Virus record (IMG/VR): IMGVR_UViG_2526164633_000050
Reading direction: 5' to 3' (one strand)
From: a virus
Lineage: Duplodnaviria; Heunggongvirae; Uroviricota; Caudoviricetes
Length of the DNA: 6,664 bases
Positions 1 through 5,608 of this stretch are shown here, in pieces. The notes below the pieces were generated by a model. That model did not search any database and had not been told where the DNA came from. It saw only the letters and a list, made by a program, of their open reading frames with translations. Each line of letters starts with the position of its first letter. Position 1 is the stretch's first letter. Both the position numbers and the translations under genes were made by a program.

Positions 1-1278
1 GTACTGCCATCCGCCCTGCGCCAGTCTTCAGCCCGTAAACCGTTACCGGCCTCACTTCCCCGTGAAACCCGGGTCATCCGGCCGGAAGAGGAATGCTGCC
101 CGGCCTGTGGTGGTGACCTCAGTCCTCTGGGGTGTGATGTGTCAGAGCAACTGGAGCTTATCAGCAGCGCCTTTAAGGTTATCGAAACACAACGTCCGAA
201 ACTGGCCTGTTGTCGGTGCGACCATATCGTGCAGGCAACAGTACCTTCAAAACCCATTGCACGCAGTTATGCCGGAGCGGGGCTTCTGGCCCATGTTGTT
301 ACCGGGAAATATGCAGACCATCTGCCGTTATACCGCCAGTCAGAAATATACCGTCGCCAGGGCGTGGAGCTGAGCCGCGCCACGCTGGGGCGCTGGACAG
401 GTGCCGTTGCTGAACTGCTGGAGCCGCTGTATGACGTCCTGCGCCAGTATGTGCTGATGCCCGGTAAAGTCCATGCTGATGATATCCCCGTCCCGGTCCA
501 GGAGCCGGGCAGCGGTAAAACCCGGACCGCCCGGCTGTGGGTCTACGTCCGTGATGACCGTAACGCCGGTTCGGAAATGCCCCCGGCGGTCTGGTTCGCG
601 TACTCACCGGACCGGAAAGGTATCCATCCACAAAATCATCTGGCCGGTTACAGCGGTGTGCTTCAGGCCGATGCTTACGGTGGTTACCGGGTGTTATACG
701 AATCCGGCAGAATAACGGAAGCCGCGTGTATGGCTCATGCCCGGAGAAAAATCCACGATGTGCATGCAAGAGTGCCCACCGACATCACCACGGAAGCCCT
801 GCAGCGTATCGGTGAACTGTATGCCATAGAGGCAGAAGTCCGGGGATGTACAGCAGAACAGCGTCTGGCGGCAAGAAAAGCCAGAGCTGCGCCACTGATG
901 CAGTCACTGTATGACTGGATACAGACTCAGATGAAAACACTGTCGCGTCACTCGGATACGGCAAAAGCGTTCGCATACCTGCTGAAACAGTGGGATGGCC
1001 TGAACGTGTACTGCAGTAATGGCTGGGTGGAAATCGACAACAACATCGCAGAGAACGCCTTACGGGGAGTGGCCGTAGGCCGGAAAAACTGGCTGTTCGC
1101 GGGTTCCGACAGCGGTGGCGAACATGCGGCGGTGTTGTACTCGCTGATCGGCACATGCCGTCTGAACAATGTGGAACCAGAAAAATGGCTGCGTTACGTC
1201 ATTGAGCATATCCAGGATTGGCCGGCAAACCGGGTACGCGATCTGTTGCCCTGGAAAGTTGATCTGACCTCTCAGTAA
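1..1278 (+). CDS. tnpC: IS66-family transposase (TnpC-like), 5'-partial; continues upstream of window
   Basis: Frame 1 is open from base 1 to TAA at 1276-1278. Translation (VLPSALRQ...[27 protein letters not shown]...LWVYVRDDR...[17 protein letters not shown]...[54 protein letters not shown]) matches remembered IS66 TnpC hallmarks: N-terminal Cys-rich zinc-finger, central catalytic region, conserved C-terminal block. ORF-track start at 139 is an internal Met. Confidence 0.93.
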
Positions 1279-1308
1279 ATATCAATACGGTTCTGGCGAG
1301 CCGCTTAC
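1..1308 (+). mobile_element. IS66-family insertion sequence, right-hand portion (left part outside window)
   Basis: Contains the TnpC ORF. The 30 nt after its stop end in ...GCCGCTTAC at 1308, whose reverse complement starts GTAAGCG, the typical IS66-family terminal inverted-repeat start. Exact end is inferred because the left end is not available for comparison. Confidence 0.7.
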
Positions 1309-1565
1309 TTGCTGATGATGCTTTGTGCCAGCTTTTCACGCTGTCCGGCTTCCTCAAGGGATGCCATGAGTTTTTTACCCACGGTGGATTGTGCGAAAAA
1401 GGCTTCCTCCTTCGCTTCCTGTTCTTCCAGAGCCTTTTTGTCTGCCTCAAGGTAGTAACGGATGGCGCGTTGCAGGTCGGTTTCAGTTTCCTGCCTGTGC
1501 TCCGTAAATCTGGCCGGATCAATGGCTGGCCGTGGTTCATTCCAGCTCCATGCAAACTCATTCAT
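1305..1565 (-). CDS. hypothetical prophage protein, 3' end interrupted by the IS66 terminus
   Basis: ATG at 1565..1563 overlaps the TGA of the upstream ORF (ATGA, + strand tcat 1562-1565). The frame runs to TAA at 1307..1305, which lies inside the inferred IS terminus, and the last sense codon (1310..1308) spans the junction. ORF-track start at 1592 is a GTG. Confidence 0.5.
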   Translation of the reverse strand: MNEFAWSWNEPRPAIDPARFTEHRQETETDLQRAIRYYLEADKKALEEQEAKEEAFFAQSTVGKKLMASLEEAGQREKLAQSIISK

Positions 1566-1951
1566 GGCTGGTATCCCGTCACGCGCTGCCACTCCTGCGA
1601 GAAGAGGGCAGAAAGGCGGTTAAATTCAGCGGTGTATTCACTCAGCGAGGCACACCCGCCAGCAGTGCGATGCGCCAGCATTGCCGCAAATACGGAGGCC
1701 GGGGAGTCGTAATACGCCAGCAGTGATTCTCCGTGTGGTGTCAGGCAGTGCAACGCCAGCCCGTGTGGTGTGAAGTCCACGCGGTAGCAGTCGTCTACTG
1801 TGAAATAAAGGGTGTCTGCATTCTCCGGTTTTGTGGTGCGTGCTCTGTTGTCACGACCACGGATGTAGAGATCAAATAATCCCTGAAGAACGGGAGCCAG
1901 ACGGGTGTCCTGTGTGCGCACCCATCTTGTGAAGTCATGAGCGTCAATCAT
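1562..1951 (-). CDS. hypothetical prophage protein (129 aa)
   Basis: ATG at 1951 preceded by AAAGAGAA; 129-codon ORF ending TGA 1564..1562, translationally coupled to the next ORF. Not recognised as any named family. Confidence 0.55.
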   Translation of the reverse strand: MIDAHDFTRWVRTQDTRLAPVLQGLFDLYIRGRDNRARTTKPENADTLYFTVDDCYRVDFTPHGLALHCLTPHGESLLAYYDSPASVFAAMLAHRTAGGCASLSEYTAEFNRLSALFSQEWQRVTGYQP

Positions 1952-2023
1952 GCTGCAATTCTCTTTACTACAGATGTGCGAAGGCCTCCCGCCGCAAGGT
2001 GCAGGAAAGGCCCGGAACAGGAA

Positions 2024-2254
2024 TTAATGGAGTTTGTTTTGCTGCTGGAAGAGTTGTTGCAGCTCGCGCAGATCATCCGCCAGATAGCTGAAAACAGAGG
2101 CGGAATAGATGTTCGATAGCGCGTGGCTGCGCTCATGCAGCATATTGATGTGCATGATTTGCGCGACGCGTGATGCGCGGAAAAGTCTACGGTTGATTTC
2201 AGTCTGGATGTGACGACGCGCAGCGTATGCGCGCTGTTGTTTGCGGTTTGCCAT
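2024..2254 (-). CDS. hypothetical small basic protein (76 aa, Arg/Lys-rich N-terminus)
   Basis: ATG at 2254 preceded by AAGAGG with about 8 nt spacing; stop TAA 2026..2024. Sits downstream of the minus-strand terminator and a putative promoter in 2390-2425. Confidence 0.5.
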   Translation of the reverse strand: MANRKQQRAYAARRHIQTEINRRLFRASRVAQIMHINMLHERSHALSNIYSASVFSYLADDLRELQQLFQQQNKLH

Positions 2255-2431
2255 GGTGTGGCCTCTTTGCTCGGTGATAGAAATAGCTCACCATCCAGAG
2301 TTGAGAATCTCGGGGTGGCGAGACGTACAGGGTTCTCAACACCGGAGAGCAAAGAATCCGGCCCGACCGAAGTCGGCCCCGTACGCCCCGCCATAATTCT
2401 GACGCGAAAAAGACGTGGCAATACAGTACGC

Positions 2432-2456
2432 ACAAAAAAACCGCTGGCGCGGTTAT
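2432..2456 (-). terminator. putative rho-independent terminator (minus strand)
   Basis: Minus strand reads AACCGC-GCCA-GCGGTT (perfect 6-bp stem, 4-nt loop; + coords 2439-2454) followed by a 7-T run (including the two stem Ts) then GTG (A-run at + 2434-2440). Lies about 120 nt downstream of the ORF ending at 2577. Confidence 0.5.
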
Positions 2457-2526
2457 GCGCTTTGCTCTGTATCGGGTTGAGAATCCCGGCACCCGTTTTA
2501 TGAGGTGCAGCGGAAATGTAACCTGA

Positions 2527-2555
2527 CCGATTGCGGCATGGCAAGCGGTTTTTTT
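2527..2555 (+). terminator. putative rho-independent terminator (plus strand)
   Basis: CCGATTGC (2527-2534) / loop GGCATG / GCAAGCGG (2541-2548): 7 of 8 pairs with one A-G mismatch, followed by TTTTTTT (2549-2555). No convincing plus-strand gene lies upstream. Confidence 0.45.
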
Positions 2556-2576
2556 GTGTGTGCATGTTCTGGTTTC

Positions 2577-2876
2577 TTACTGGTTCAGAAAAAAATCAAA
2601 AACCTTGTCAATGCGTTGCAGCAGCTCTTGCTGCATTGCTTCCGGCGTTTCCGGTTCGCCAGGTGCCCCCAGCGTTGCGCAGAAATCAGCGATTTCATGA
2701 TGGAGCGTCAGGCGAATGGCAGGAGCCGTGGTTCTGGCGTGCTCCAGCTGATCCAGCAGTGCCAGCACAGCAGACGGCGAGAGCATTGCGCGAAATGCCA
2801 GTAATTTTTGAGGAGTTGCCATTCGTTGCAGGGCAAATGCCAGTTCGCGTAGCTTCTGGTGGTTGATGGTGCTCAT
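2577..2876 (-). CDS. hypothetical early-operon protein (99 aa)
   Basis: ATG at 2876 overlaps the TGA of the upstream ORF (ATGA, + tcat 2873-2876); stop TAA 2579..2577. Last ORF before the minus-strand terminator. Confidence 0.6.
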   Translation of the reverse strand: MSTINHQKLRELAFALQRMATPQKLLAFRAMLSPSAVLALLDQLEHARTTAPAIRLTLHHEIADFCATLGAPGEPETPEAMQQELLQRIDKVFDFFLNQ

Positions 2877-3139
2877 GTTCTGGCTTCCTTCAGTAGCTGG
2901 TTAAACATGTGAGTAAGTGGATTGCTACACCCGAACGGCATCGGGTTTACTTGGTAAGAAGCCTGGCCTCCAGTTTTGCGAGCGCGACCACCTGTGCTGC
3001 GGTTTGTTCTGATGACTAAGCCGCCGCGCCAAAGTTGGCGTAACTCAGCATTAATGGCTGTGGTTGGAGTATTCAGTGCTGCGGCGATCTCTCCGCCGCT
3101 ACACCCCGGATGAGTAGCGATGTAGTCCAGAATGGTCAT
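2873..3139 (-). CDS. hypothetical early-operon protein (88 aa), possible helix-turn-helix DNA binder
   Basis: ATG at 3139 overlaps the upstream stop (ATGA, + tcat 3136-3139). N-terminal segment DYIATHPGCSGGEIAAALNTPTTAINAELRQLWRGGLV resembles an HTH/winged-helix pattern; this is inference only. Confidence 0.55.
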   Translation of the reverse strand: MTILDYIATHPGCSGGEIAAALNTPTTAINAELRQLWRGGLVIRTNRSTGGRARKTGGQASYQVNPMPFGCSNPLTHMFNQLLKEART

Positions 3140-3339
3140 CTGCGTGGCTCCTGTACTTGTCGGATAAGATTCACCCGCGCCACGTTGGTGGCGCAGAAAT
3201 AAGTGCCGTCAGTGAGGTAGATGTGGTGCGCATCCTTTTCCGAACGATGTTTGTCGATAGTGGTAATCAGGCGTTCGTCGACCTCGTATTCGCGCCCTCT
3301 GGAGGTAAAGCGAACGACGGAAAAATGCTTAATTGCCAT
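3136..3339 (-). CDS. hypothetical early-operon protein (67 aa)
   Basis: ATG at 3339 preceded by AAGGGGG; stop TGA 3138..3136, coupled to the next gene. Confidence 0.55.
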   Translation of the reverse strand: MAIKHFSVVRFTSRGREYEVDERLITTIDKHRSEKDAHHIYLTDGTYFCATNVARVNLIRQVQEPRR

Positions 3340-3362
3340 TGCGCCCCCTTTGTCCAGTAACC

Positions 3363-3701
3363 CTATGCGTTAAATACGGCACGTTGCGCGTCATCAATGA
3401 ATACAGCTTGAGAGCGTTCTATCAGGCGGAGATTTGTCAGAAGCTCAGACTCTTTTGTGTGGTAAGGCGTTATCAGGTATTTGCCGTGCAGTTCGGCAAT
3501 AATGGTGTATTGCGGCATCATTGCTGAACCAAGAATATAAATGCAGCGTCCAATGCTGGACGGATTCATGGCTGCAACTGTTGACTGTGTTTTAAGAGTG
3601 TCGATTTCTTTGCTCTGTTCCTCAATAATTTTGGCTGCGTCAGCGGTGATTTTTGCAATGGTCAGTGCGTGAAGTGCTGCCATATGTTGGCTACGCTTCA
3701 C
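3363..3701 (-). CDS. hypothetical early-operon protein; start uncertain (GTG 3701 or ATG 3683), probably the frameshifted continuation of an ORF starting at ATG 3778
   Basis: Long open frame ending TAG 3365..3363. The frame is open upstream to 3779 but the only in-frame starts (GTG 3701, ATG 3683) lack a Shine-Dalgarno. A strong RBS+ATG at 3778 is in another frame and joins this one at an A7 run (see findings). Confidence 0.55.
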   Translation of the reverse strand: MKRSQHMAALHALTIAKITADAAKIIEEQSKEIDTLKTQSTVAAMNPSSIGRCIYILGSAMMPQYTIIAELHGKYLITPYHTKESELLTNLRLIERSQAVFIDDAQRAVFNA

Positions 3702-3870
3702 GGCATCTTTAGCCGTTTCATCTTCCGCTTCTGATATTTTTTTAATGTGTTGATAATGCCTTCTTCTTTTGTGTTCATTTTATATCTCCGTTATTTACGT
3801 GTGCGAATACCTCCGCGAATGCGGATAGTTTTCAGGTTTTCGGGTTTAATCTGGTGTTTTGTTTAAGCTG

Positions 3871-3984
3871 TTATTCGTCAGTGAAAAAGCGTTCAATCTT
3901 TTTTACTGAATGAATAATTCGCATAATCCCAATGGCGCAGGCCACCGAAATAATCAGAACAAGCCATGAGATAAATATACTCAT
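3871..3984 (-). CDS. putative small membrane peptide (37 aa: MSIFISWLVLIISVACAIGIMRIIHSVKKIERFFTDE)
   Basis: Not in the ORF track (short). ATG 3984..3982 overlaps the TGA of the 80-aa ORF (ATGA, + tcat 3981-3984) and is preceded by GGGGA about 7 nt upstream; stop TAA 3873..3871. One predicted hydrophobic helix followed by a charged tail. Confidence 0.4.
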   Translation of the reverse strand: MSIFISWLVLIISVACAIGIMRIIHSVKKIERFFTDE

Positions 3985-4223
3985 GCGATATTCCCCAGCT
4001 TATACGGTTCAATATGTTCCCCGCATTCTGCGGCACAGATCAGCTCGGAAAGTTCGTTAAGTGCATCCAGATCATCAGCGTAAAAAGCGACGTCATACAA
4101 ACTCCGGATTGCCCTGGTCAATGAGTCACGAGCTGCACGTTCAGCATGAGCGCCTGATGCACTTAAGCGAAAATAAAATCGTTCAAGTGCTTTGTTAATG
4201 AGAGTTTTATATTCTTTGCCCAT
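3981..4223 (-). CDS. hypothetical early-operon protein (80 aa)
   Basis: ATG at 4223 with AAAGGG upstream; stop TGA 3983..3981. Confidence 0.55.
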   Translation of the reverse strand: MGKEYKTLINKALERFYFRLSASGAHAERAARDSLTRAIRSLYDVAFYADDLDALNELSELICAAECGEHIEPYKLGNIA

Positions 4224-4234
4224 CGCAACGCCCT

Positions 4235-4513
4235 TTAATCTGCTTTCTGAATTTCAGCTTCTGAATCCATACAAATAATTTCGATATATGGTTCATCGCC
4301 ATTAACCTGACGTGCCTTTTCAGCTTCGCTAATGATTTCTCGCACGGTCTGGTACGGAAGCTCCACAGTCAGGCGCGTACCGTTCAGATAAACGTAAGTA
4401 GCTGCGTTTTTTTCGGATGGAACAACTCCGTCAATGGCTGATGCGCGTAATAACAGTTCACCGCGAAAATCAATAAAACGGATAAATACACCTTGTGCAT
4501 GCTCTTTGGTCAT
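4235..4513 (-). CDS. hypothetical early-operon protein (92 aa from ATG 4513)
   Basis: ORF-track start at 4573 is a TTG inside the upstream gene. ATG at 4513 is preceded by AGGTG and lies 10 nt after the upstream stop; stop TAA 4237..4235. Confidence 0.55.
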   Translation of the reverse strand: MTKEHAQGVFIRFIDFRGELLLRASAIDGVVPSEKNAATYVYLNGTRLTVELPYQTVREIISEAEKARQVNGDEPYIEIICMDSEAEIQKAD

Positions 4514-5210: not shown

Positions 5211-5305
5211 GTGATAATCTCCCTGTTTGGGGTATTTCTTGCGACGGATGCCCCAAATCAAACTCATTTGTATAAACATTAATACAGACGTTGGAGAATT
5301 GCAAC
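5211..5305. promoter_or_regulatory. putative lysis-lysogeny switch region (divergent early and repressor promoters with inverted-repeat operator candidate)
   Basis: 95-bp gap between divergent cox-like and C-like genes. Inverted repeat TTTGGGG (5226-5232) / CCCCAAA (5251-5257) with 18-bp spacer. Candidate leftward promoter TTGCAA (5299-5304), 17 nt, TAATGT (minus; + 5276-5281). Candidate rightward -10 TATAAA (5271-5276). Promoter calls are pattern matches only. Confidence 0.45.
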
Positions 5306-5608
5306 ATGCGTATGACTATTGGAGAGCGCATAAAAATCATGCGTGAAAGCGAGAGACTTACTAGCCTCCCGGATACAGCAAAAATGCTTGGTTTAAACCG
5401 TGATGCTCTGTGGAGATATGAAAGCGGTAAAACTATCCCTAATGCTGAAGTAATTGAGCAAATACTAAACAACCCCAGATTTGAGAAATATGCGTTGTGG
5501 TTTATGACTGGGAAAATTGCGCCTGAATCCGGGCAGATAGCTCCGGCTCTCGCACACTATGGGCAAGAGCCAACGGACTTACCCCCATCCGAAAGGAAAA
5601 TTGGCTAA
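5306..5608 (+). CDS. P2 C-type immunity repressor (about 100 aa)
   Basis: ATG at 5306 preceded by GGAGA at 5293-5297; ORF-track start 5291 is 15 nt upstream in frame. N-terminal HTH-like region and the block YALWFMTGKIAPESGQIAPALAHYGQ resemble remembered P2 C repressor. Immediately upstream of the integrase on the same strand, as in P2. Confidence 0.8.
   Translation: MRMTIGERIKIMRESERLTSLPDTAKMLGLNRDALWRYESGKTIPNAEVIEQILNNPRFEKYALWFMTGKIAPESGQIAPALAHYGQEPTDLPPSERKIG

Follow-up and report, generated by a model that had tools for sequence, protein, structure and literature searches.

The window, by which we mean the whole 6,664-nt stretch of DNA analysed here, matches the first 6,664 nt of contig AIHB01000062.1 (GCA_000250235.2) with 100% identity. 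The AIHB prefix belongs to Escherichia coli DEC12B, a strain of serotype O111:H2 (PMC4959244). The window is the early operon of a P2-like prophage. An integrase gene (5642 onward) and a gene for a C-type HTH repressor (5291-5608) are found on the plus strand. The minus strand carries a Cox-like gene, DUF4761 and DUF4754 genes, small ORFs, a split gene, a 67-aa ORF, a MarR-like gene and a 99-aa ORF. It also carries a C4/isrK RNA region and a 129-aa ORF, as well as what is left of replication gene A, its first 86 codons.

Gene A of this prophage is interrupted by an insertion sequence. The 3' part of an IS66-family (ISCro1-like) element occupies positions 1..1308 of the plus strand within the gene, and is 96.4% identical to the ISCro1 transposase region in a gapless alignment. 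The reading frame of the element is open to base 1, and both the window and the contig begin inside it. Of gpA, the replication endonuclease, 86 codons are left (1305..1565, minus strand), the gene being cut by the IS66 insertion at about position 1308; in relatives a PF05840 protein of 946 aa is encoded here. The insertion truncates gpA and thereby renders the prophage replication-defective. The same IS66/gpA junction is present in a second assembly, GCA_002542395.1. A search of the GTDB representative genomes with the junction pattern, and with the tract pattern described below, gave no match.

Two small RNAs are recognised by Rfam on the minus strand, the C4 antisense RNA at 2311-2398 (78.5 bits) and isrK at 2434-2508 (62.8 bits). 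A 205-aa ORF on the same strand (1948-2565) is called as a protein in some public annotations; it is probably spurious, because the C4 and isrK RNAs lie beneath it. A 76-aa ORF at 2024-2254 is assigned to the PF25738 'Derepression' family in public annotations. Rfam identifies no RNA family in or near 3683-3778, and a scan of the minus strand at the split site for promoters and terminators gave nothing relevant.

The split gene (3363..3778, minus strand) is a homologue of phrog_9338, and appears as a disrupted early gene of the P2-like prophage with a 1-nt deletion. Its 5' fragment, MNTKEEGIINTLKKYQKRKMKRLKMP, is an ORF of 26 codons (3698..3778, minus strand) that begins at ATG 3778 and stops at the TGA at 3700-3698. 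The ATG is preceded by the Shine-Dalgarno sequence GGAGA (3785..3789, minus strand), which is invariant in a six-locus alignment and stands 6 nt upstream of the start codon, or 7 nt if counted from the GGAG core. Upstream, the long frame extends without a stop as far as 3779, next to a TAA at 3782-3780; its own stop codon is at 3365-3363. The first start codons of the long frame are GTG 3701 and ATG 3683. The 3' fragment that begins at the GTG (3363..3701, minus strand) comprises 112 aa, which in the intact protein are residues 27-138; the ATG is the start chosen by gene callers and leads to a 106-aa product (P0078). GTG 3701 and the TGA of the short frame overlap as GTGA. A run of seven As (A7, or T7 on the plus strand) is found on the minus strand at 3737..3743, where intact relatives have eight (A8). 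In the frame of ATG 3778, the 0 frame, this tract reads TT A_AAA_AAA T. Residues 15-26 of the 26-codon frame (YQKRKMKRLKMP) are out-of-frame read-through up to the TGA at 3700-3698. The window as it stands holds residues 1-14 and 27-138 of the phrog_9338 protein in two different frames. The coordinates that the first-pass annotation had given for the two frames, the A7 run and ATG 3778 with its GGAGA are all confirmed in the sequence.

That annotation had also predicted that one added A would produce a continuous protein of about 138 aa. Exactly this protein is on public record as P0077, with 143 contigs. Each of four close variants is found on 999 contigs or on 1,000 and more, and contigs with intact proteins number more than 4,000. 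The orthologues are annotated as a single 417-nt CDS of 138 aa, for example in T28R and ECL27829, which are the closest relatives of the window region (T28R at 99.6% identity) and both have A8. The orthologue in T28R, which is intact, matches phrog_9338 over positions 1-138 of 138 with an E-value of 2.4e-81 and is one residue apart from the repaired window protein, with Met22 in T28R and Thr22 in the window. An alignment of homologues over the tract, which had been suggested as a check, gives A8 and one 417-nt CDS in the closest intact relatives. All the intact relatives examined carry a single ORF of 138 or 136 aa, which supports the reading of one gene split at the A7 run. The eight As of the intact gene belong to the codons TTA AAA AAA ATA (Leu-Lys-Lys-Ile).

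The gene has the early-operon position typical of its family, between a 37-aa ORF that follows DUF4754 and the 67-aa and MarR-like genes. The gene order is the same in T28R, ECL27829, the O157 strains and draft assemblies. A 521-nt region around the gene is matched in 878 of 5,426 complete E. coli genomes and is covered to at least 80% in 542 of them.

Residues M1, A3, K4, E5 and L12 are invariant in a 30-member family alignment, with G7, I8 and K13 nearly invariant. Family-wide conservation thus extends over the first 14 residues of the short frame, which are the real N-terminus of the gene product, and ATG 3778 is the true start codon.

No Pfam family matches the 112-aa fragment or the long frame translated from 3779 (138 codons), and a search for a named homologue of the gene product found none. 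The phage collection contains only four relatives, with 54-56% identity, all annotated as hypothetical. An AlphaFold2 model built with 30 homologues is of moderate confidence (mean pLDDT 67, pTM 0.41) and predicts an N-terminal helical hairpin followed by a small beta-rich, beta-barrel-like C-terminal domain. Foldseek comparison of this model with PDB and BFVD returned nothing at E <= 0.001; there are weak similarities only, to small beta-barrel (KOW/SH3-like) domains.

Residue 22, at which the window departs from T28R, is encoded at position 3715. The codon is ACG (Thr22) in the window and ATG (Met22) in most relatives. The Thr22 base is also found together with A8 at four other loci (L007, L008, L029 and L046). 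The ACG removes the internal ATG that lies behind 117-aa protein calls in the frameshifted alleles of other haplotypes.

Tract lengths were counted with the pattern ACACATT-A6-N{0,4}-TATCAGAAGCGGAAGATGA. Among 19 IMG/VR and eight metagenome contigs, A8 is present in 26 of 27, and the remaining one carries an in-frame substitution, A7T. The tract was recovered from 75 of the 5,426 complete E. coli genomes searched, with about 64 A8, six A9 and no A7. All six A9 genomes are of serotype O157:H7 (FRIK944, FRIK2455, FRIK2533, FRIK2069, ECP19-2498 and BB24-1). They come from several strain series and have the gene at similar chromosomal positions, and their A9 is probably one event. The A9 allele of FRIK2533 is annotated as frameshifted (A8V31_RS13050; locus L003, 683-1100), and such alleles have a 20-codon frame of the MNTKEEGIINTLKKNIRSGR type. 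Repair of an A9 allele would require a +1 or -2 shift, or else an mRNA with one A fewer. The presence of A9 in six complete genomes demonstrates that slippage of this tract really occurs.

The 106-aa product P0078 served to locate further A7 alleles. It is called on 13-15 contigs. Among the ten of these that were shown, four have A7 in mid-contig, three are A8 genes truncated at the end of their contig and a further three begin at the ATG. The four mid-contig cases are DEC12B itself, GCA_035951495.1, GCA_013106015.1 and GCA_032419845.1; A7 outside DEC12B is found in these three NCBI assemblies, on two other haplotypes. A7 alleles are found on three backgrounds in all, each with an A8 counterpart that is identical at the variable sites compared: the window pairs with L007, L008 and L029, locus L035 with L001 and L028, and loci L036 and L037 with L020 and L023. 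Each of the variant alleles examined, whether A7 or A9, has an A8 counterpart that is otherwise identical. N-terminally truncated calls of 106 or 117 aa occur on about 75 contigs, against more than 4,000 with intact proteins, or roughly 1-2%; this is a rough proxy for frameshifted alleles, as some of these calls are contig-end artefacts and pseudogenes with no protein record are uncounted. The tract site itself varies among intact alleles, the common O157 allele having AAAAATAG there and the 136-aa clade GAAAGAAA. The census points to an ordinary slippage-prone or error-prone homopolymer, and to neither a conserved recoding site nor a two-gene layout.

The two frames are, as read from these comparisons, a single 138-residue prophage gene in which A8 has contracted to A7, and the arrangement of the frames is accounted for by homology at the sequence level. 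We place the probability that this single gene has undergone a non-programmed loss of one homopolymer base, with mutation and miscall taken jointly, at about 0.9. The loss is considered non-programmed because the split layout is unconserved, the out-of-frame tail is confined to A7 alleles and the tract is not kept across the family. The pattern that would have spoken for two genes, namely homologues with two separate genes, the same A7 tract and a short upstream peptide, was searched for and not found. The first-pass annotation had offered four explanations. Two of these, a sequencing error and a recent frameshift pseudogene, survive the analysis; programmed slippage and functional phase variation find no support.

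Homopolymer frameshift pseudogenes of this kind are already known. The O157:H7 strain FRIK2533 provides the nearest case, annotated by PGAP as a frameshifted gene, in which a one-base change in the same tract of the same gene splits the 138-aa ORF. The FRIK2533 change is in the opposite direction, to A9, and is common to six complete genomes, whereas the A7 of the window is private to one draft.

We give about even odds to a genuine and very recent strand-slippage deletion in DEC12B, which would make the locus an incipient pseudogene and not a device. An incipient pseudogene is suggested in place of a device because the prophage has already been inactivated by the IS66 insertion in gene A. Compared with loci L007, L008, L026 and L029 the window has no further indel over 2.9-3.5 kb, and the sole other indel relative to T28R breaks the gene of T28R, not that of the window. 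The neighbouring ORFs tested in the window are all full-length matches to family models. These observations indicate that the DEC12B assembly is not riddled with homopolymer errors.

A sequencing or assembly miscall is somewhat less probable than a genuine deletion, and has a considerable claim of its own. The strain would then truly have A8 and an intact 138-aa gene, one A having been dropped from the draft consensus. An independent assembly with the same IS66 junction argues for this. It is represented by NMEO01000122.1 (GCA_002542395.1; locus L046), a contig of 2,775 nt that was found via its 86-aa truncated gpA and extends 76 nt into the IS element. Over its 2,775 nt this contig is 100% identical to window positions 1232-4005 apart from the tract, which is A8 and leaves the 138-aa gene intact. 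As L046 has the same junction with A8, A7 on this haplotype appears to be private to the DEC12B draft. A7 on the window's haplotype is also a singleton, no similar places being recorded for L034, and as noted it is absent from the 5,426 complete genomes. The source is a draft contig from 2012 that breaks inside an IS element. Two other 7-nt runs of the window have an extra base in one genome each, the run at 2589-2595 in T28R and that at 4407-4413 in CDE6306, which suggests that homopolymer discrepancies are common among assemblies of this prophage. On the other side, the window has seven further runs of 6-7 nt, and in the comparison with relatives these show no indel save those that break the relative's own gene; the A9 common to six O157:H7 genomes is a heritable length change at the same site; and A7 recurs in mid-contig in three other assemblies.

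The host gene of the T28R and CDE6306 runs is annotated as a pseudogene in both genomes, and the window has the intact length at both.

A third possibility is that the A tract is a contingency locus, switched between ON (A8) and OFF (A7 and A9) by slipped-strand mispairing. The tract is 40 nt into the coding region, lengths of 7, 8 and 9 are all found, and for each of at least three A7 backgrounds, as for one A9 background, there is an A8 sequence that is otherwise identical. Two assemblies, the window and L046, differ in length at the tract and nowhere else. OFF alleles are rare, however, both by the truncated calls and in the complete genomes (0 A7 and 6 A9 of 75). The tract is not conserved in the family, as the common O157 allele and the 136-aa clade demonstrate, and frameshifts at non-repeat positions of the same gene in other assemblies fit simple decay. 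In a contingency locus the OFF lengths are common and the tract is maintained by selection; here the OFF lengths are scarce and the tract is replaced in other intact alleles. We therefore regard phase variation as very unlikely.

Some product could in principle still be made from the A7 allele. Ribosomes that initiate from GGAGA and ATG 3778 would mostly make the 26-residue peptide and stop at the UGA at 3700-3698. A minority might slip by -1 on A_AAA_AAA and so produce the exact wild-type sequence ...LKK-ISEAED...; after a tandem -1 slip, ATA is read as the next codon. A restart at the GUG that overlaps the stop codon would yield a protein without residues 1-26, which cover helix 1 of the helical hairpin in the AlphaFold2 model. 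By analogy with studied A runs the leak from A7 is probably small, perhaps negligible. With the host RNA polymerase, out-of-frame reporters were not detectably rescued on runs of fewer than eight As (PMC6260861). The tract length might nevertheless tune the dose of the protein, with A7 leaky through -1 slippage or GUG reinitiation and with A7, A8 and A9 recurring; we hold this to be as improbable as the ON/OFF switch. If it were true, A7 would result in reduced full-length or N-truncated protein and would not be a null allele.

Expression of the A7 allele by design is more improbable still. The 26-aa and 138-aa products would both be made, the longer one by -1 ribosomal frameshifting or by transcriptional insertion of an A. 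Programmed -1 frameshifting of the dnaX type uses the heptamer A_AAA_AAG, an upstream Shine-Dalgarno sequence and a downstream hairpin. The A7 allele likewise has a Lys-Lys slippery heptamer in the 0 frame; the run is a canonical X_XXY_YYZ heptamer, and a -1 shift on it restores the exact wild-type protein. In contrast to the dnaX type, the A7 allele is without conserved stimulators or a conserved two-frame layout, and a shift would repair a lesion, not add a product. The 82 nt 3' of the run are predicted to fold at -24 kcal/mol (z = -2.9), but the predicted structure begins 2 nt past the run, where 5-9 nt is usual, and the stretch involved is ordinary coding sequence. The sequences differ too little for covariation to be informative, and the fold was given no weight.

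The Gateway vector pDEST17 contains a comparable Lys-Lys run of As, C_AAA_AAA in its attB1 site, at which adventitious -1 frameshifting takes place (Belfield et al. 2007, PMC1851650). In this E. coli expression vector 25-60% of the product was frameshifted, and one-base-deletion mutants still gave active protein of the correct size (PMC1851650). The pDEST17 case is experimental and concerns T7-driven overexpression, and T7 polymerase is itself prone to slippage (PMC6260861); the A7 described here is known from sequence, and with the host polymerase the leak is probably far less.

Poly-A tracts at the junction of two frames are also found in Citrobacter rodentium tssM1, which has A11 (PMC4256274), and an extra A in the mRNA restores the product there as it would here. 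The runs of nine As or Ts in IS elements follow the same junction logic (Baranov et al. 2005, PMC1088944). The tssM1 and IS-element tracts are 9-11 nt long and are conserved together with their split layout, whereas the tract in the window is 7 nt long and is unconserved. Slippage-prone lengths in bacteria are typically nine (PMC1088944), and A7 falls short of the eight As that E. coli RNA polymerase needs for detectable slippage on A runs in reporters (PMC6260861). Nearly all relatives are A8 single ORFs, the split layout is not conserved, and the tail YQKRKMKRLKMP is a feature of A7 alleles only. Programmed recoding is rejected on this lack of conservation.

The remaining alternative, two real genes with a 26-aa leader coupled through GTGA to a 112-aa protein, has next to no chance of being correct and is rejected on homology: the stop and start do overlap as GUGA, but the homologues are single ORFs in which the GTG is an internal Val codon, no Shine-Dalgarno sequence lies upstream of GTG 3701, the 112-aa GTG-start product is not on record by exact look-up, and the 26-aa peptide is absent from the protein collection. 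The GTGA overlap is incidental, as the intact gene reads these bases as GCC GTG AAG (Ala-Val-Lys).

The result has little significance beyond annotation. In the annotation of DEC12B, EHX24351.1 (106 aa) and the unannotated 26-codon ORF should be treated as one frameshifted gene, or the tract should be corrected to A8. The locus is a clean example of a homopolymer indel that mimics a recoding signal, with a good Shine-Dalgarno sequence and ATG on the short frame, a long frame that lacks a start and an in-frame slippery heptamer; a census of the orthologues settles the matter. If the lesion is real, it would be a further sign of decay in a prophage disabled by IS66 in its replication gene.

Damage to the gene is frequent in public assemblies. 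Six other proteins (P0009, P0011, P0012, P0028, P0063 and P0072) reflect frameshifts elsewhere in the gene, for example after ...YHTK and after ...GRCI / GRRI, and P0008 is a fusion of the gene with the DUF4761 gene. About the last 80 nt of the gene and the spacer to the next gene (window positions ~3340-3445, minus strand; alignment columns 420-525) do not differ by a single nucleotide among the six aligned loci, including an allele that is only about 76% identical across the whole 521-nt region. This pattern looks like a mosaic or recombination boundary.
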